From: an uncultured bacterium
GTDB taxonomy: Bacteria; Chlamydiota; Chlamydiia; Chlamydiales; FEN-1388
DNA: 64,000 bases
NCBI GenBank assembly: GCA_964577935.1
Contig: CAZOAJ010000002.1
Location: 92,598-156,597 of the forward strand
Direction of reading: 5' to 3'
This document shows, piece by piece, positions 46,053 through 63,656 of this stretch. The notes under the pieces were generated by a model. The model was not told where the DNA came from, searched no databases, and was given only the letters and a program-made list of their open reading frames with translations. The position numbers were made by a program, and so were the translations under genes. Positions within the stretch are counted from its first letter, which is position 1. Each line of letters starts with the position of its first letter.

Positions 46053-48194
46053 TCAGGCTCTTTTTCTTGATGGGTATTTAACCCGAAAATGCCCAATAGT
46101 GAGAAGGGCTGCAATCATAGCATGCTTGACTCGCGTAAGCTCCTCAAAGGTAAGCAAACATTCATCAAACTGACCATCATCTAATCGTTCTCTAATAATT
46201 TGATCAATGAGTTTCAGGAGTGTCGTTTTATTAACTTCTTCTAACGAACGCGACGCAGCCTCAAAAGCATCAGCAATCATTATAATGACACACTCTTTAC
46301 TCTTAGGCTTTGGCCCTGAATAACGAAAAAGCCGTTCTTCCGTAGGAGGTATTCCGCCCTGAGCAACGAGTTCTTGTTGTTTGTGAAAGAAATAATAGAC
46401 CAAAGAAGTTCCGTGATGCTCTTTTATAACATCAATAAAGGGTTCTGGAAGGCCAGCCTTACGTGCTAAAGCAACGCCTTCGCTTATATGAGACATAATT
46501 ACTTTAGCTGATTCAACGGGAGTTAAGAGCTGATGAATATTAACCCCTTGTTGCTGATTCTCTGTAAAATATTGAGCTATAGAAACTTTTCCAATGTCAT
46601 GATAGAGAGACGCTACGCGACAAAACAGGCCATTAGCACCGATAGCTTGAGCCCCAGCCTCGGCAATTGTCCCCATAATCAAAGAGTGCTGGTAGGTTCC
46701 CGGAGCTTCGATCATGAGCCTTCTCAGCAACTCCTGATTTGGATCCATGTACTCCATAAGATTGATATCGGTCAGGATGTTAAAGCATGTTTCAAAGATA
46801 GGAAGAAGTCCTACAACAAGCACAGCCGTCATAAGCAAAAAGAGGCCCGAGCTGCCAATATCAGATAGAAGCCACACTCCCAATTTCGATTTATCATAGA
46901 GGTAGAGAGAAAAGATGAGAGCAACAGCCATGACCCACCCCTTCATGCAAACAGCTACAACTTCAGATCGTTTTCTAAAGCTTTTTGTAGCTAAAATCAT
47001 GAACATAGTCACGATGACATTCACCAAAAGAAATCCTTGGCGTTCAAATGCAAGCGTTGTATCCAAAAGGGTTGCGAAAAGCGCTGTCGTAAAAATAGCA
47101 AGCCCCGGCTGCAAGAGAGCTGCAACTAAAATACCGACAAAGGGCGCAAGAAGTGGGTAATGGACCAAGTCAACGAGGTTATGCGAGGTCTTTAGAAGGA
47201 AAAACTCGGTGATTTTTGAAAAAAGAAGCCCCATCACAATTGTTGATGTAAACAAAAGAAGCTTCCGATTGCTTTTCCACACATCCGTAGCAAAAGACCA
47301 AAGGTATAACCCTCCGGTCAACAACAGGATGCATGTAATAAAAAGACTTCCTAAAATCGTTCGTGGCTGGAATAGATTACGTTTATCGGTCAAGGCCTGC
47401 TTCATGGATTGAAGCATGGCGATATGGCGGGCCGTAACGCGCTCACCTTGATCAATGATTCTGCTTCCGACACTGACTTGTGTGTATTTTTCAGGTGTTT
47501 TTTCTTGAAGGACTTTTCTGATTTTCCGCGCCGTCGGATGATCTTCTTTGAGCAGCCATATTTTTTGTTTGAAAAAGTCGATTACGTAGTCAACAGTTGC
47601 GCCTTGATAGACTTGCTGAAAAAAAGCACGGTCACGAATCTGGAGCCAAAGCTTTTCAGGGATATAAATTCCATTTGAAATATCGACAGCAGGAAGCTCT
47701 AGCATAAGATGCGTGTCCATACTGAGCTGTTTCATTTTTTCAATTGTTCTGAGGTCCGCAAATCGGACTTCTAAAAGAGTTCTTTCAAGCAGTTCAACAG
47801 CGCGGCACATTTCATCAAAAGTGCTTTGCTTTGCCTCCTGTCGCCACGCTTGCTCATAAATCAATGAATTCTCAAATTCTACACGGCGTTTGACGATATC
47901 ATCTGCATCCAAAGCATATATGCGTCCTATATCAAGCAGAGCTTCCTGTCTCATAATAGCCGTAGCTTCTTCATCAACAAAAGCAAAGGGTATTTCGGAC
48001 ACAACATAATTAGGAGCTGCCGTTCCAAGCTCAAGTGTAACGGTACGAACTTCCCGTATATGAATAAAAAGGAATAAAGCTATCGCGAGCAAGGCAATAA
48101 TGGCATATCGTATCGAGTGGCTGGTATCAAAAAAACTTGTTTCACGAACTGAAGTTGAAACCTCAATTGGTTCATCTTCTCGCGTTTCCGGCAT
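46053..48194 (-). CDS. pgpH: 7TM-receptor HD-domain phosphohydrolase (PgpH/YqfF family, cyclic-di-AMP phosphodiesterase type)
   Basis: Extracytoplasmic N-terminal domain, 7 TM helices, and a C-terminal HD/HDIG domain (HSLIMGTIAE...LYHDIGK...EHHGTS). Confidence 0.88.
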   Translation of the reverse strand: MPETREDEPIEVSTSVRETSFFDTSHSIRYAIIALLAIALFLFIHIREVRTVTLELGTAAPNYVVSEIPFAFVDEEATAIMRQEALLDIGRIYALDADDIVKRRVEFENSLIYEQAWRQEAKQSTFDEMCRAVELLERTLLEVRFADLRTIEKMKQLSMDTHLMLELPAVDISNGIYIPEKLWLQIRDRAFFQQVYQGATVDYVIDFFKQKIWLLKEDHPTARKIRKVLQEKTPEKYTQVSVGSRIIDQGERVTARHIAMLQSMKQALTDKRNLFQPRTILGSLFITCILLLTGGLYLWSFATDVWKSNRKLLLFTSTIVMGLLFSKITEFFLLKTSHNLVDLVHYPLLAPFVGILVAALLQPGLAIFTTALFATLLDTTLAFERQGFLLVNVIVTMFMILATKSFRKRSEVVAVCMKGWVMAVALIFSLYLYDKSKLGVWLLSDIGSSGLFLLMTAVLVVGLLPIFETCFNILTDINLMEYMDPNQELLRRLMIEAPGTYQHSLIMGTIAEAGAQAIGANGLFCRVASLYHDIGKVSIAQYFTENQQQGVNIHQLLTPVESAKVIMSHISEGVALARKAGLPEPFIDVIKEHHGTSLVYYFFHKQQELVAQGGIPPTEERLFRYSGPKPKSKECVIIMIADAFEAASRSLEEVNKTTLLKLIDQIIRERLDDGQFDECLLTFEELTRVKHAMIAALLTIGHFRVKYPSRKRA

Positions 48195-52622: not shown

Positions 52623-52705
52623 GCTCGGGTGGTGAAATGGTAGACACTGGGGACTTAAAATCCCCTGGGAGCGATCCCGTGCCGGTTCGAGTCCGGCCTC
52701 GAGCA
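52623..52705 (+). tRNA. tRNA-Leu (anticodon UAA), class II with long variable arm, CCA not encoded
   Basis: Manually folded. Acceptor GCTCGGG/CTCGAGC (one G-U pair). Anticodon stem GGGGA/TCCCC with loop CT-TAA-AA. Variable arm TGGGAGCGATCCCGTG. T-arm GCCGG-TTCGAGT-CCGGC. Discriminator A. Confidence 0.9.
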
Positions 52706-52970: not shown

Positions 52971-53840
52971 ATGCCAATAATTTCCAATAAGATGAATTTA
53001 GCCCAAACGCTTCAAAAAGAACTACCCCCATTAATCCATGCACCGCATGATGAAAAAACTGGAACTTCACAGATGAATGAGGGGAACCACTTTGGATGGG
53101 TCGTTCAATTCAATCGAATGTTAAAAATTGAAAAATTATATTTAAATGATTCCAATCTGAATCTTGGACCAAAAATTATTTCTAAAATAGAGAATGTCTT
53201 TTATGCATTCATAAAGTCTATGACCTCTCTTGGATTTGACGTTAATAAAAACCTTGTATGGCAAGGCTATAAACCTTTGCATAACGCTGTATTAAATAAC
53301 TGTAAAGTGGTGGCAAATTGTTTAATTCGATTAGGCGCAGCAATAGATGATGACAACGGATCACGACAAACACCTCTTTATCTTGCAGCATGGAATAGTC
53401 AGCACGACATGGTAGATCTCCTCATAAAGAAAGGAGCAAACGTAAAAAAGGAAAATAATGCACTTTTAAGTTGTGACACACTCGCTTTACATATTGCAAC
53501 TTGCCCGAAAGTAATCCAGTCTCTCGTCTCAGCAGGCACCTCTGTCAACGCAACATCCAAAGACCTCTTACAGTATACAGCTCTTCATTGGGCAGCCCAT
53601 TGTGCCCGACCAGATGCAGTTGAAACGTTATTGAAGCTTGGCAGTATAGATATCAGAGACCAGGGAGGTCTGACAGCTTTGGATGTTGCTAAAAAAATAC
53701 AAAGCGGTGATTACAGCGTAATGATGGATGGTAAAGAGAACCCAGATGCTAAGACCGTTCAAAGTCGAATTGTTAAAACAATTGAACTTCTTGAGAGTCA
53801 TCATAAATCATACCCATCTCAAACTCAAAGCCTCAAGTAG
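52971..53840 (+). CDS. ankyrin-repeat protein (eukaryote-like, effector candidate)
   Basis: At least 4-5 ANK units (GYKPLHNAVLNNCKVVANCLIRLGAAID, QTPLYLAAWNSQHDMVDLLIKKGANV, YTALHWAAHCARPDAVETLLKLG, GLTALDVA). No signal peptide. Confidence 0.9.
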   Translation: MPIISNKMNLAQTLQKELPPLIHAPHDEKTGTSQMNEGNHFGWVVQFNRMLKIEKLYLNDSNLNLGPKIISKIENVFYAFIKSMTSLGFDVNKNLVWQGYKPLHNAVLNNCKVVANCLIRLGAAIDDDNGSRQTPLYLAAWNSQHDMVDLLIKKGANVKKENNALLSCDTLALHIATCPKVIQSLVSAGTSVNATSKDLLQYTALHWAAHCARPDAVETLLKLGSIDIRDQGGLTALDVAKKIQSGDYSVMMDGKENPDAKTVQSRIVKTIELLESHHKSYPSQTQSLK

Positions 53841-58847: not shown

Positions 58848-59921
58848 ATGAATGTACTTAAGAAATGTCTACAAGCAACGCTTTGCATATTGAGCATTTC
58901 GACATCAAGCATTGTGATAGCAAAGACTTCAAACGACGCACATCATCACAAGACAAATCGTAAATACTATACTTTTAATTATCCTGAACAAGCCTCCGGG
59001 GGAGAAACCCTGCTTACAGGGATTCGAAAAGTTTCTGGAAAGCACAACAGCTACTACATAAGCGGCTTTTATAAGTATCCAAATGGAGCGTCCGTAATAT
59101 CATTTGTGTATAAGGGACCGTTGTCAGGCAATGGAACATGGAATACACTCAACTATCCATCCTCATCCGGTATCACAGTACTAGAAACCAATCTCTACGG
59201 TCCGAATAATGGGCCAAGATCTGAGATACAGGTCGTGGGCAACTACACCACCGAAGAAACAGGAGCATCAGCAATAGGCTGCCTATATGAAGGGCCTTTG
59301 GATGGCTCTGGAAAGTGGACCTCACTCATTCCTACTTCTTCATCTCAAGTCCTAGATACAATAGCCCATAGCACTATGGGAGGCCTTGTCGTAGGAAACT
59401 ACAACACGCAGCCTCATGTAAGTAAAGCATTTATCTATGATATTAAAAAAGGTGTGTACCACGATATCAAGAAACCTGAGGCAGTTGATATTACAGCATA
59501 CGGTATTTGGCACAATGGTGGTCATTCATATACCATTTGTGGTGGATATTCTAATGCCGACGTTATTTCTGGGCTCGATTCAGCATATTTAGTCGATTGG
59601 AATAATAAAAAACGTAGATTCAGTAATTGGAGAACATTTAGCTACAAGAACGATCCTCTCAAGGCAGTTGTCACACACTTCGATGGAATCACTTCAGATG
59701 GCAATGGCGGCTATAATCTCACAGGCGACTGGTCAGGAGTTGCCGATGGTCCACAATCTGGATTCTTCTGCAATGTACGCGGAAACAAAGCAACCTGGTC
59801 ATCAATATCATTCCCCCATCATAAACTTACTTCAGGCAATTCAGTCTCTCAAAAAATTGTGATCGGGGTATATCCATCAAACAAAACGAATTCCGTATAT
59901 GGGTACATCTCTATTCCTTAA
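58848..59921 (+). CDS. secreted hypothetical protein, probable beta-propeller
   Basis: Signal peptide (LQATLCILSISTSSIVIA). Recurring (V/I)xG(N/G)Y strand motifs about every 45-50 aa (YISGFY, QVVGNY, LVVGNY, ICGGYS, VIGVY). Confidence 0.55.
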   Translation: MNVLKKCLQATLCILSISTSSIVIAKTSNDAHHHKTNRKYYTFNYPEQASGGETLLTGIRKVSGKHNSYYISGFYKYPNGASVISFVYKGPLSGNGTWNTLNYPSSSGITVLETNLYGPNNGPRSEIQVVGNYTTEETGASAIGCLYEGPLDGSGKWTSLIPTSSSQVLDTIAHSTMGGLVVGNYNTQPHVSKAFIYDIKKGVYHDIKKPEAVDITAYGIWHNGGHSYTICGGYSNADVISGLDSAYLVDWNNKKRRFSNWRTFSYKNDPLKAVVTHFDGITSDGNGGYNLTGDWSGVADGPQSGFFCNVRGNKATWSSISFPHHKLTSGNSVSQKIVIGVYPSNKTNSVYGYISIP

Positions 59922-60067: not shown

Positions 60068-61612
60068 ATGAAACGCCCCCTTCTTTACATCAGCATAACT
60101 CTGCTTACAGCCGGCTGTAAAGTAGGCCCTGATTATCAAAAACCAGAAGCTCCCACTCAAATTGCCTATACTGAAGCCAAAGAAGAAAAAACCTTTGTTC
60201 CTAAAGACGAAGATCTCGTTACATGGTGGAAGGTCTTTAATGACCCTTTTCTTGATCAACTACTCAATGAAACCGTTTCTGGAAATTTTGATTATAGAAT
60301 TGCCTTAGAACACGTTTCTCAAGCAAGATCCCAATATTGGATGCAATTTACAGACATCCTTCCTGAGTTTGTTTTTGACGCTCAAACGTCCCGATACCGT
60401 GCAAGTCAAGCGTTTAGATCCTCGCAGCCTCCAACTACCTCATCCTCAACCACATCGACAACTACAACAGCAGCAACTCCACTAACACCTGCCAGCACAA
60501 CCACTACATCGACAAATTCTTCCATCTCAGGAGCCAAACTCTCTCCAACTCAAAGTTTCTTCCAACTTGGATTTGACGCTATCTGGGAAATTGATCTCTT
60601 TGGAAAATTACAAAGGTCCGCTGATGCAGCTCATGATACCTTAGAAGCAATGGATGAGACTTCAAGAGACGTCAAAATCACCGTCTTGAGCGAAGTTGCC
60701 AACACCTATTCTCTTATCTGTGTCCTACAAGAAAAAGTGGCTGTTGCAAGCCAAATAGTTGAGGCAGATGAAGAGTTACTCGCATTAGCAAATGATCGTT
60801 TTCGCTCAGGAATTGCAAACGAGCAAAGCGTCGAAAGCGCAATAGCAACACTAGAAATTGATAAGGCGAATTTAAAAGTTTTTCAAACTCAATTAAAAGA
60901 AAATATATATTCCTTATCTGTTCTTTTGGGGAGAGATCCAGAAACTCTGATTGAACCTTTTACAATTAAGCGCCCCATTCCAATGGCGCAAGGAAAAATA
61001 CCAGCAGGCATACCAGCAGATCTTTTGAAACGCAGACACGATGTGCGAGCCGCCGAAAGAACACTCGCATCAGCCACAGAACAAGTTGGAGTCGCTGTCG
61101 CTCAGCGCTATCCAACAATCTCGCTCACAGGATCAAGCAGCTCATTTGCTGCCAACCCTCTTCAAGGGGCAAATGCTGGATTCACATCGGATAAGGCAAA
61201 TAAATTGTTTAAAAACTCCGCTCGAATTTGGGGTATTGGAGCTCTGTTCACGGTCCCTGTCTTTGACTTCGGAAAGAGACTTGCCGGCGTCGAACTTCAA
61301 ATGGCAATTCAGCGAGAAGCATTGCTATCCTATCAAAAAACGGTTATTGCAGCGCTCCAAGAGGTAGAAATTTCCCTTGCCACCTATTTTAATGAAGAAG
61401 AAAGAGAATCCAGTTACAGCGCTGCAGCAATGGCTAACAAAAGAAACTATGACCTGACTTTGAATCTCTTTAAAGCGGGTCTCGTGGATTACTCATCGGT
61501 AAATGAGGCAAAAGAGATTTGGCTAAGAGATGTCGTGACATTAACTGATAGCAAACAATCCCTTACAAGCGCTCTCATTGCAGTCTATAAAAGCTTAGGC
61601 GGAGACTGGTAA
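60068..61612 (+). CDS. RND-efflux outer-membrane factor lipoprotein, NodT family
   Basis: Lipobox LTAGC followed by the family hallmark KVGPDYQKPE, then WW..F.DP.L..L and two OEP repeats. Carries an unusual Ser/Thr-rich insertion at aa 118-154. Confidence 0.92.
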   Translation: MKRPLLYISITLLTAGCKVGPDYQKPEAPTQIAYTEAKEEKTFVPKDEDLVTWWKVFNDPFLDQLLNETVSGNFDYRIALEHVSQARSQYWMQFTDILPEFVFDAQTSRYRASQAFRSSQPPTTSSSTTSTTTTAATPLTPASTTTTSTNSSISGAKLSPTQSFFQLGFDAIWEIDLFGKLQRSADAAHDTLEAMDETSRDVKITVLSEVANTYSLICVLQEKVAVASQIVEADEELLALANDRFRSGIANEQSVESAIATLEIDKANLKVFQTQLKENIYSLSVLLGRDPETLIEPFTIKRPIPMAQGKIPAGIPADLLKRRHDVRAAERTLASATEQVGVAVAQRYPTISLTGSSSSFAANPLQGANAGFTSDKANKLFKNSARIWGIGALFTVPVFDFGKRLAGVELQMAIQREALLSYQKTVIAALQEVEISLATYFNEEERESSYSAAAMANKRNYDLTLNLFKAGLVDYSSVNEAKEIWLRDVVTLTDSKQSLTSALIAVYKSLGGDW

Positions 61613-61754
61613 ATTTCGACCCTCCAGCTCCAACTTTCTACCCCGGACTCCCCTAGCACGGATACTTCACGAATAAAAAAACGATTCCTTAATTACTCAG
61701 CAATACAATAAAATTCTCTTTTATTAAAAATTCCACAATTTAAATAAGGCACCA

Positions 61755-63305
61755 ATGTCGTTATCCGCTATTGAATACACATCACGAACTCTTCCATACG
61801 ATGAAATCTCGAGGAACCCAGACTCTTCTACACATCCTCAAAATATCAATAGCGGACACTCCCAAAAAGCAATATCGATAATTGAAAAGACTTTGAACGA
61901 AACCGCCTTACGGTCTGTTTCCTGGACACAAGAAGCAAAAGATCGTTTTAAAAAACTTATCGACAATGGAACACCTCTACGTAAAGTATCGCATATATTA
62001 ACCGCTGAGTTACATCAGCCATTCACTTTTCGAGATGTAGCATTCTATAAAAACAAGCTTGGAGGATTAATTCCCTCGAATAAAAGGAATGAAAGCAGAC
62101 TTAAAAGATCTCCCTTGCCGGACAAACCGATCGATAAACATGCTTTTTGGACAGCAGATGAAAAAGAAACGTGCCAGAAGCTGCTTGACGAGAAAAAACT
62201 GCTTACAAGGAATAAAAAAAGTTTATCTTATAAAAAAATAGCCGAAATTCTCACAAAAAAATTTCGGGTAAAATTTACCACTGGAATGATTCAGTACTAT
62301 TCTGATCGTTATGCGTCATATCAAAACTCAAAAGTTACCAGATCAAGCCAAGATAATGTATACATAATCCCTCCCAAACATCCCGTATGGAAGTCGATTA
62401 AATTAAATAAATCTTACACATCTATAGAAAGGAGAACGATCTCTCCTCTAAACTACGTTGGGAATAAAAATGCGCTCACACCACTTATTTGGAATTTACT
62501 CCCAAATGCCGTGGTTCAAAATAAAATGACCGTAGTAAGCCCATTTGCTGGATCAATGCCGGTTGAGTTAACGCTCGCAATGAAAAATATAAAAGTAATC
62601 GCTGGAGATGCATTTAAGGAGCTCTGTAATTTCTGGAAGTGCCTTTTTGAAGACAAAGTTAAACTGGCTAGAAATGTTCAATCCTGGATAAAGAAGAATC
62701 CAAATCTTGTACCCACCCAAGAAAAATATAATGAGCTACGAAACCTTTGCACAACGCTTCTTCAAGATTCAAACATGCCTGATTCAAACAGGTTTCTCAG
62801 CGCTACTTATTTTTTTATCTTGAATAAAGTATCCCTTAATGCTTTGGGACTCGCTACACAAAGTGGTTTAAGCAAAAATAAATTGGAAGAATTTTCCAAA
62901 TCCGAACCTGCAGCATTGATCCAGTCATTTCGAAACAGCTTAAAGAAAAATATCTCTATTGAAGAGATCGACTACAAACAGCTTATTGGAAGCAATCCTG
63001 AGGCATTTTTATTTTTAGATCCTCCCTACTGGTACAACACACCTAGAGAAAATCGATTGTATGGAGTAGATGGAGAATTACATAAAAACTTTAAACATGA
63101 AGATCTCCATAACATCATAAAGACCAGAAATAATTGGCTTTTATGCTACAACGACTGTCCAAAAGTACGAGACTTATACAAAGGATTTACTTTTGTTCAA
63201 ATCCCCTGTAAGCGATCTCATAGAATGAGTGAATTGCTCATCTTAAGCCATGACCTTGCAAAAGAGCGCACGCAAAAGCTTAAGGAGCTCAAACAAGAAA
63301 TTTAA
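61755..63305 (+). CDS. Dam-class (D12, alpha-type) N6-adenine DNA methyltransferase with N-terminal tandem Myb/SANT-like repeats
   Basis: MTase motifs: NYVGNK (aa 233-238), PFAGS (aa 263-267), DPPY (aa 422-425, nt 63018..63029). N-terminal repeats: WTQEAKDRFKKLIDNGTPLRKVSHILTAELHQPFTFRDVAFYKNKL and WTADEKETCQKLL...SYKKIAEILTKKFRVKFTTGMIQYYSDRY (nt 61923..62312). Confidence 0.8.
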   Translation: MSLSAIEYTSRTLPYDEISRNPDSSTHPQNINSGHSQKAISIIEKTLNETALRSVSWTQEAKDRFKKLIDNGTPLRKVSHILTAELHQPFTFRDVAFYKNKLGGLIPSNKRNESRLKRSPLPDKPIDKHAFWTADEKETCQKLLDEKKLLTRNKKSLSYKKIAEILTKKFRVKFTTGMIQYYSDRYASYQNSKVTRSSQDNVYIIPPKHPVWKSIKLNKSYTSIERRTISPLNYVGNKNALTPLIWNLLPNAVVQNKMTVVSPFAGSMPVELTLAMKNIKVIAGDAFKELCNFWKCLFEDKVKLARNVQSWIKKNPNLVPTQEKYNELRNLCTTLLQDSNMPDSNRFLSATYFFILNKVSLNALGLATQSGLSKNKLEEFSKSEPAALIQSFRNSLKKNISIEEIDYKQLIGSNPEAFLFLDPPYWYNTPRENRLYGVDGELHKNFKHEDLHNIIKTRNNWLLCYNDCPKVRDLYKGFTFVQIPCKRSHRMSELLILSHDLAKERTQKLKELKQEI

Positions 63306-63656
63306 AGATGACCTCTCGATAGAAATCAAAATTATTTTTCTTTTCCTCTCTATTTTTGTGTAGTCATCAATTTTGAATTTTCTCCATAAATGATGACTCA
63401 TACTATGTAGAAGATTGCTAATTTATTTTGTGATTCTGACTAACGCAAAACATGAGCCTGGGTTGCCCCTATTGGAGCGTCAAAGCTATTTATTAGAGGC
63501 AACCAAGCGCATAAGTTCGTTAGACAAAAGGTCAAAAGATATGACTCGATTTTGCGTAAGGTGAGCAATAATTCAAGATGGATTAGCAATCCACAGCACA
63601 AGACAAATTGACAAGACCACTTGAGCCACGTGAATATCAGATCGAGGAGAAAATCT

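Follow-up and report, generated by a model that had tools for sequence, protein, structure and literature searches.

The gene at positions 61755 to 63305 of the 64,000-nucleotide (nt) stretch of DNA from an uncultured chlamydia analyzed here (the window) encodes a protein of 516 amino acids (aa), in which two repeats predicted to be helix-turn-helix (HTH) modules precede an alpha-class amino-methyltransferase domain. We consider this protein, with a probability of roughly 55%, to be a solitary, probably active methylase that modifies the DNA of the bacterium itself, the HTH pair serving as an extra DNA-binding arm. The first-pass annotation of the gene had put forward a Dam-class adenine methylase fused to two Myb/SANT-like repeats and directed at host chromatin, with as its alternative a methylase that acts on the bacterial chromosome and carries an extra targeting module, and it is this alternative that fits the evidence best.

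The catalytic half is the easier of the two to assign. Pfam profile PF02086 (MethyltransfD12) matches aa 234–483 almost end to end (profile positions 1–247 of 253, E = 7.9e-23, 81.9 bits at a cut-off of 22), in line with the D12 membership proposed earlier, and the best PADLOC models (the Type II restriction–modification (R-M) methylase MTase_II, E = 7.8e-32, and PD-Lambda-5_B) as well as PHROG 56 agree. The ordered motifs NYVGNK, PFAGS and DPPY that had been read from the sequence are all present at the positions given for them, DPPY at 63018..63029, and the order is that of the alpha class: NYVGNK at residue 233, PFAGS at 263, GDAF at 284, NFW at 292, a recognition region at about 345–400 and DPPY at 422. 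Aligned with its relatives, the window protein keeps 41 of the 49 family columns with a conservation of 85% or more and deviates at eight; DPPY, the motif II Asp (GDAF), NFW and LYG..G.H..F.H are retained. The methylase is probably active, because DPPY and these 41 columns are in place.

Motif I is atypical for the family. It reads F-A-G-S-M against the canonical FxGxG, with Met at the second-Gly position (Gly, Ser or Ala in relatives) and Pro for the Ser that follows; in T4 Dam, too, a bulky residue occupies this position. Altered as well are R358 (now Lys), the conserved Arg before FT, which is missing, and the C-terminal loop, which is shortened. A methylase fold that has lost catalysis and been recruited as a DNA-binding or regulatory protein, with no methyl transfer, would account for these changes, for the two near-invariant motif I positions that are off (G267S and S269P) and for the long branch that the protein forms in the family tree. 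We nevertheless hold this to be very improbable, the least favored of the explanations weighed here, on the strength of the retained elements listed above and of active M.CbeI, which itself deviates at more of the conserved columns (10, for the partial sequence compared; P0012 and P0028, two further relatives, deviate at 9 and 14). Beyond DPPY, most of the conserved family columns are intact; motif I is atypical (FAGSMP).

The identification as a Dam-class, N6-methyladenine (m6A)-forming enzyme is not supported. Against TIGR00571 (dam) the protein scores 61.4 bits, below the NCBIfam cut-off of 114.85, and a direct phmmer search of PDB sequences at E ≤ 1 gave 7M6B as the sole match beyond chance level (E = 1.2e-20; about 33% identity over 224 columns), with none of Dam, DpnM and T4 Dam found. 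The family profile searched against PDB favors M.CbeI (3.9e-78) over the Dam-type enzymes DpnM (3.6e-25) and EcoDam (about 1e-20) by more than 50 orders of magnitude. Structure 7M6B belongs to the alpha-class N4-cytosine methylase M.CbeI from Caldicellulosiruptor bescii (PMC8616854), and the CbeI report (PMC3425538) describes M.CbeI as making N4-methylcytosine (m4C) in GGCC, as bearing DPPY, as formerly annotated in GenBank as an adenine methylase and as 57% identical to Anabaena DmtB, likewise a GGCC m4C enzyme. Since M.CbeI makes m4C with a DPPY motif, DPPY and D12 membership cannot separate m6A from m4C. In a neighbor-joining tree the window protein is the long branch already mentioned, within the group of P0008, and M.CbeI falls in the sister group. 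As judged from these sequence comparisons, the catalytic half lies in the group around M.CbeI and DmtB, the latter a solitary enzyme, and apart from Dam proper. P0008 itself, from an Ekhidna metagenome-assembled genome (MAG) and about 34% identical, is encoded directly upstream of an RE_HaeIII gene (PF09556); this two-gene R-M module (locus L084, 2839-4595; Ekhidna sp. MAG JAPPDO010000032.1) sits between the ATP synthase alpha and gamma genes, that is, inside the atp operon.

The modified base may be N4-cytosine or N6-adenine, and the family as a prior leans toward m4C and GGCC. The hairpin consensus NRxSFSGTxxSGGxS...RFTxSSIERL is well conserved in both groups of the tree; the window protein has NKVSLNALGLATQSGLSKNKLEEFSKSEPAAL instead, and because its presumed recognition hairpin is divergent, its site may differ from GGCC.

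The repeats of the N-terminal half, aa 53–105 and 131–195, are a genuine internal duplication. BLASTP aligns them at E = 1e-5, and their Smith-Waterman score of 57 compares with 22.9 ± 4.3 for shuffled sequences (z = 7.9, none of 5000 as high); the second repeat carries a 9-aa insertion after helix 1. A single-sequence AlphaFold2 model contains two three-helix units (helices 59–70, 75–86 and 92–102, and 134–151, 159–170 and 176–193) at a predicted local distance difference test score (pLDDT) of about 85–90, and repeat 1 modeled alone reaches 82. Repeats and linkers are positively charged, at +4 to +8 net, which is what DNA-binding elements would be expected to show. Profile searches returned nothing of substance: aa 1–230 have no match in Pfam, NCBIfam or PHROG, neither repeat meets a Pfam family at E ≤ 10 nor aa 1–222 one at E ≤ 1, and a two-repeat profile yielded chance matches in PDB only (eS7 and phosphomannomutase, E > 0.6), with no Myb chain. 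With the 230-aa model, in which the relative orientation of the two domains is arbitrary, the best Foldseek E-value was not below 0.2 in PDB or 0.026 in BFVD. The two-repeat model retrieves tandem-HTH DNA binders, namely TnsB, MuA, SETMAR, POU, a phage 'GcrA' protein (second in the BFVD ranking) and the Pax paired domain. On these models, the repeats are predicted to be a generic three-helix HTH module of the DNA-binding kind, present twice.

What had been called two Myb/SANT-like repeats is therefore a real duplication and is built, as modeled, of three-helix HTH bundles, but the Myb/SANT identity itself is without profile support, and only the first of the three Myb core Trp residues is present (W57 and W132), the later positions being Leu, Val, Phe or Tyr. 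With hhalign, the Myb repeats gave 4.9% over 17 columns, confined to helix 1 with its common WTxE..L..L start. In Foldseek searches with the repeat-1 model, where all E-values exceed 0.5 and the hits are statistically weak, the two top matches (E 0.5–0.6) are the N-terminal HTH of the phage G20c small terminase (4XVN; probability 0.98, TMq 0.77, root-mean-square deviation 1.5 Å) and the DNA-binding domain of Caulobacter GcrA (5YIU; probability 0.96, TMt 0.77, 26% identity over 50 columns). Myb-like domains (ZZZ3, CDC5L, CASP8AP2) follow at ranks 9 to 16 with probabilities of 0.23–0.41, homeodomains come at lower probability and rank, and a GT-1 trihelix reaches a TMt of 0.56 against the two-repeat model. 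Structural comparison, as suggested in the first-pass annotation, thus matched HTH-type folds but placed the Myb-like ones below terminase and GcrA. Myb/SANT identity is thus not supported by profiles, Trp pattern or structural ranking; as far as the models go, the label fits the general shape only, and a three-helix bundle with a helix-turn-helix is common to very many HTH families.

Membership of the GcrA family was likewise rejected as unproven. The GcrA and c-Myb sequences used for comparison were confirmed against PDB. The hhalign value for GcrA is 39.8% over 19 columns, again in helix 1 only and with a shallow GcrA profile, the family search having given only sequences 84–100% identical to the query. 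BLASTP aligned repeat 1 with GcrA at E = 0.002 over 25 aa only and repeat 2 not at all, and neither the N-terminal region nor either repeat matches Pfam GcrA (PF07750). GcrA reads m6A through R33, I37 and G38 (PMC5887438), residues that are not conserved in a hand alignment of TRNAVIGKVHRLG with TFRDVAFYKNKLG. The CCCH / sigma-70-interacting zinc domain found in GcrA is absent from the window protein.

The N-terminal extension is a true part of the protein and not an annotation artifact, because no alternative start leaves an intact methylase: the only in-frame alternatives, codons 47, 121, 178, 253, 258 and 268, each cut a repeat or remove motif X, and none yields a stand-alone enzyme. Searched by phmmer against 1.84 billion representative proteins, the N-terminal 230 aa matched only the protein itself; there is no eukaryotic homologue among them, and nothing marks the repeats as eukaryotic in origin. 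The extension is absent from 29 of 29 protein-database relatives and from all 80 viral-contig relatives, nearly all of them stand-alone enzymes of 260–300 aa, and tblastn found no paralogue of the N-terminal region in the window or in 80 related loci. An identical copy of the full protein (P0001) occurs once in the protein collection searched, and a scan of species-representative genome contigs with the methylase protein gave no match. That the architecture is not a described family, as first suspected, agrees with these searches, in which the tandem-HTH extension was seen only here among the relatives examined, and on sequence the N-terminal half appears to be a lineage-specific add-on.

Other members of the methylase family carry extensions of their own. 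Three relatives from giant-virus MAGs in IMG/VR (L151, L154 and L158) have 74–115 additional N-terminal aa; in L154 and L151 this stretch opens with a C2H2-like zinc finger, CxxC-x12-H-x3-H, whose Pfam score narrowly misses the cut-off (zf-C2H2, E = 1.3e-4). P0002, to which the methylase domain is most closely related (33–37% identity; L001 244-1401, Logan SRR31375410), contains Asn-rich low-complexity insertions at its N-terminus and inside the domain; its contig, of 23% GC and densely packed with genes for Asn-rich proteins, points to a giant virus or to some other genome that is very AT-rich and associated with amoebae. With the giant-virus members and P0002, extensions are seen to recur within the family in agents that live in eukaryotic cells. 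An apparent 244-aa C-terminal extension of one viral relative (L094) was dismissed as an artifact, a stop codon separating a second gene.

The surroundings of the gene bear on whether the methylase works alone. As the first-pass annotation had it, no restriction endonuclease gene flanks it: neither neighbor is a nuclease, an outer-membrane lipoprotein of the OEP/NodT type (Pfam; 60068-61612, + strand, co-directional) lying upstream and 353 nt of non-coding DNA downstream, where about 350 nt had been estimated. A tblastn search of the 64-kb window with the RE_HaeIII protein of L084 found no homologue (best E 0.42), no operator-like inverted repeat occurs upstream in 61560..61960, and among the 4-mer palindromes of the window only CTAG shows depletion (GATC stands at 0.90, GGCC at 0.88). 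In Type II systems, moreover, it is uncommon for the R and M genes to be unlinked. These results count against the view that the protein is the modification subunit of an R-M or other defense system with its nuclease elsewhere, the HTH pair being a fused C-protein-like controller that times expression. That view draws on the PADLOC assignments given above, on the HaeIII-type gene adjoining P0008, on the place of M.CbeI in the CbeI system (PMC3425538), and on M.SsoII and M.Ecl18kI, in which the N-terminal HTH region regulates the R-M operon, repressing the methylase gene and activating the nuclease gene (PMC3978073, PMC2760811). Taken together, we judge it unlikely. In composition the gene (GC 0.368, GC at third codon positions 0.343) and its codon usage are ordinary for the window, GC at first codon positions being the lowest in it; because codon usage and third-position GC are typical, the gene looks resident and not recently acquired, and a recent transfer from a donor of different composition was rejected.

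Delivery to host chromatin, the other proposal of the first-pass annotation, would make the protein a secreted nucleomodulin that enters the nucleus of the host amoeba, where the HTH pair would guide it in methylating host DNA. In favor of this are the chlamydial origin of the window, the lineage-specific nature of the protein, its Ser/Thr-rich N-terminus modeled at low confidence (pLDDT < 50 over most of aa 1–35, with a helix at 35–51; 11 of 56 residues are Ser), and a gene for an ankyrin-repeat protein 8 kb upstream. Such an N-terminus is typical of, and not specific to, chlamydial type III substrates, and the Ser-rich stretch is an unspecific feature. Precedents exist in the host-directed bacterial DNA methylases HsdM, Rv2966c and Mhy1-3, and in NUE, a secreted chlamydial histone methylase (PMC10117894). 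The repeats, however, are not demonstrably Myb/SANT or eukaryote-like and are without eukaryotic homologue, and a regular-expression test found no bipartite nuclear localization signal, the sole K[KR]x[KR] match, KKFR at aa 168, falling inside a predicted helix; most bacterial solitary methylases, furthermore, act on self DNA. Since DPPY/D12 enzymes can be N4-cytosine methylases, a story of an m6A-writing effector cannot rest on the motif alone. We therefore do not follow the proposal: a nucleomodulin of this kind seems quite unlikely, and its more specific form, a type III-secreted effector whose HTH pair docks on amoeba chromatin and whose M.CbeI-like domain writes m4C or m6A there, somewhat less likely again. 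Another improbable reading is a 'reader-writer' enzyme, in which GcrA-like HTHs would recognize DNA that is already methylated and in this way direct maintenance methylation.

In the reading that we prefer, a solitary methylase with no adjacent endonuclease gene would methylate the bacterium's own chromosome, producing m4C or m6A, and the flexible, basic tandem-HTH arm would act as an extra DNA anchor. The pair could bind a specific operator and so bring about autoregulation, as in M.SsoII and M.Ecl18kI, could bias methylation toward particular loci, or could strengthen binding to DNA in general, a part played in CcrM by its accessory domain. The role would be epigenetic or regulatory, or else one of protection from the restriction enzymes of viruses and bacteria that share the amoebae; protective orphan methylases have been proposed for amoeba-associated giant viruses (PMC7253447). 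The analysis shows the domain identities, the duplication, the predicted folds, the lack of a neighboring nuclease gene and the uniqueness of the extension; that the enzyme is active, which base and site it modifies, that the repeats bind DNA and that the substrate is self DNA are what we infer here.

Several observations weigh against this assignment. The missing operator-like repeat is one. The window holds only 700 nt downstream of the methylase gene, so that the inspection extended no further on that side, and an unlinked endonuclease is possible. In related Chlamydiota MAGs only the neighboring ABC-transporter operon is syntenic; its ATPase shares 81–72% identity with proteins from MAGs of Chlamydiae and Parachlamydiaceae, which marks the window as DNA of an environmental chlamydia. 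A 357-aa open reading frame (ORF) and the genes for the OEP lipoprotein and the methylase are missing at that place in the related MAGs; because the methylase is missing from the syntenic region and has no close relative, a conserved housekeeping epigenetic role is unlikely. Finally, activity and specificity are uncertain, because motif I (FAGSMP against FxGGGS), the recognition hairpin and one conserved Arg are altered. The features of the gene are collected in Table 1.

Table 1. Features of the methylase gene and the adjoining downstream region; positions are those of the window, and AF2 stands for AlphaFold2.
Feature	Position	Strand	Basis and remarks
Coding sequence, HTH-HTH-methyltransferase fusion	61755..63305	+	ORF list; 516 aa, stop codon within coordinates
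Shine-Dalgarno-like AAGG	61746..61749	+	Read from sequence; ATG start 5 nt downstream
Leader, aa 1-52, Ser/Thr/Asn-rich, mostly low-confidence/disordered with one predicted helix	61755..61910	+	AF2, composition
Repeat 1, aa 53-105, predicted three-helix HTH bundle, begins SWTQE	61911..62069	+	AF2, Foldseek; net charge +5
Linker, aa 106-130, basic, Pro-rich, predicted disordered	62070..62144	+	pLDDT <50 for aa 105-124; net charge +4
Repeat 2, aa 131-195, predicted three-helix HTH bundle, begins FWTAD	62145..62339	+	Repeat alignment, AF2; net charge +8
Linker to catalytic domain, aa 196-228, basic, predicted disordered	62340..62438	+	pLDDT <50 for aa 193-225
Alpha-class amino-methyltransferase domain, aa 229-500 (Pfam D12, M.CbeI/DmtB-related)	62439..63254	+	Pfam, PADLOC, PDB 7m6b, family alignment
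Motif X, NYVGNK, aa 233-238	62451..62468	+	Alignment; family consensus RYPGGK
Motif I, PFAGS(MP), aa 263-267	62541..62555	+	Alignment; family consensus PFxGGGS, second Gly and Ser replaced
Presumed target-recognition hairpin, ILNKVSLNALGLATQSGLSKNKLEEFSK	62817..62900	+	Alignment; family consensus NRxSFSGTxxSGGxS...RFT, divergent here
Motif IV, DPPY (catalytic), aa 422-425	63018..63029	+	Alignment
C-terminal tail, aa 501-516, short, charged	63255..63302	+	Translation
Intergenic region, 353 nt	63306..63658	.	Three imperfect inverted repeats, 14-16 nt, 81-86% complementary

The intergenic region downstream has no terminator-like site on the + strand and no Rfam family, and beyond it begins an ORF with a signal-peptide-like N-terminus and no Pfam match over the 114 aa within the window, so that the peptidase label of the first-pass annotation finds no backing there. 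The OEP lipoprotein upstream contains an unusual Ser/Thr-rich low-complexity insert at about aa 115–165 (SSQPPTTSSSTTSTTTTAATPLTPASTTTTSTNSS). It is preceded by the 357-aa ORF (58848-59921, + strand), which has a signal-peptide-like N-terminus and no Pfam match; since the related MAGs lack this ORF at the syntenic position, what follows the ABC operon appears to be lineage-specific. The ankyrin-repeat protein (52971-53840, + strand; 289 aa, several Ank repeats, Pfam E = 4.5e-20) belongs to a class that often supplies candidate host-interaction factors in intracellular bacteria. Further away lie a 7TM receptor with an intracellular HD hydrolase domain (46053-48194, - strand; 7TMR-HDED, 7TM-7TMR_HD and HD) and an 83-nt tRNA (52623-52705, + strand), the sole Rfam match in the window.

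If the HTH pair truly targets the enzyme, the protein would be a natural case of a methylase that takes its program from a DNA-binding module of its own, duplicated and separate from the catalytic part, and this in a lineage of obligate intracellular bacteria in which few methylases have been studied. Its value at present is as a candidate to be tried in a simple methylome experiment in a heterologous host, and interest would be high only if secretion or HTH-directed methylation were demonstrated by experiment. The comparison with M.CbeI also carries a caution of wider use, in that D12/DPPY enzymes annotated as 'DNA adenine methylase' can be N4-cytosine enzymes.

Compared with known systems, the catalytic half shares the Pfam D12 fold, the alpha motif order and DPPY with M.CbeI and DmtB, from which it differs by its long branch and diverged recognition hairpin; M.CbeI lacks the 228-aa N-terminal extension, and the window protein lacks a HaeIII-type partner within the window. 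Pfam family, DPPY and motif order are equally shared with the GATC N6-adenine enzymes Dam, DpnM and T4 Dam, but the protein stays under the TIGR00571 cut-off and GATC specificity is without support. The repeats have in common with Myb/SANT domains (c-Myb R1-R3, TRF1/2, CDC5L, ZZZ3) a three-helix bundle of about 50 aa, its occurrence in tandem copies and the WTxE start, and with GcrA a start that reads SWTxE...LKKL in both. The host-directed concept already exists in Mhy1-3, Rv2966c, HsdM and NUE, enzymes of families different from that of the window protein (PMC10117894). The giant-virus members L151, L154 and L158 combine the same methylase family with a small N-terminal add-on of DNA-binding type, as the window protein does; theirs is a single C2H2-like zinc finger with no sequence similarity to the window N-terminus. 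The nearest functional analogues for the add-on are M.SsoII and M.Ecl18kI, which join an N-terminal HTH module through a flexible linker to a methylase. These, however, methylate cytosine at C5, their HTH region is single and about 70 aa long, and they come with a defined operator and an endonuclease gene in divergent orientation, whereas the window protein has two duplicated modules, no nuclease neighbor and no operator-like repeat. The enzyme family, and HTH-methylase fusion as such, are thus known; what is new is the tandem-HTH architecture, as far as sequence comparison goes an apparently unique one, occurring as a singleton in one uncultured chlamydia.

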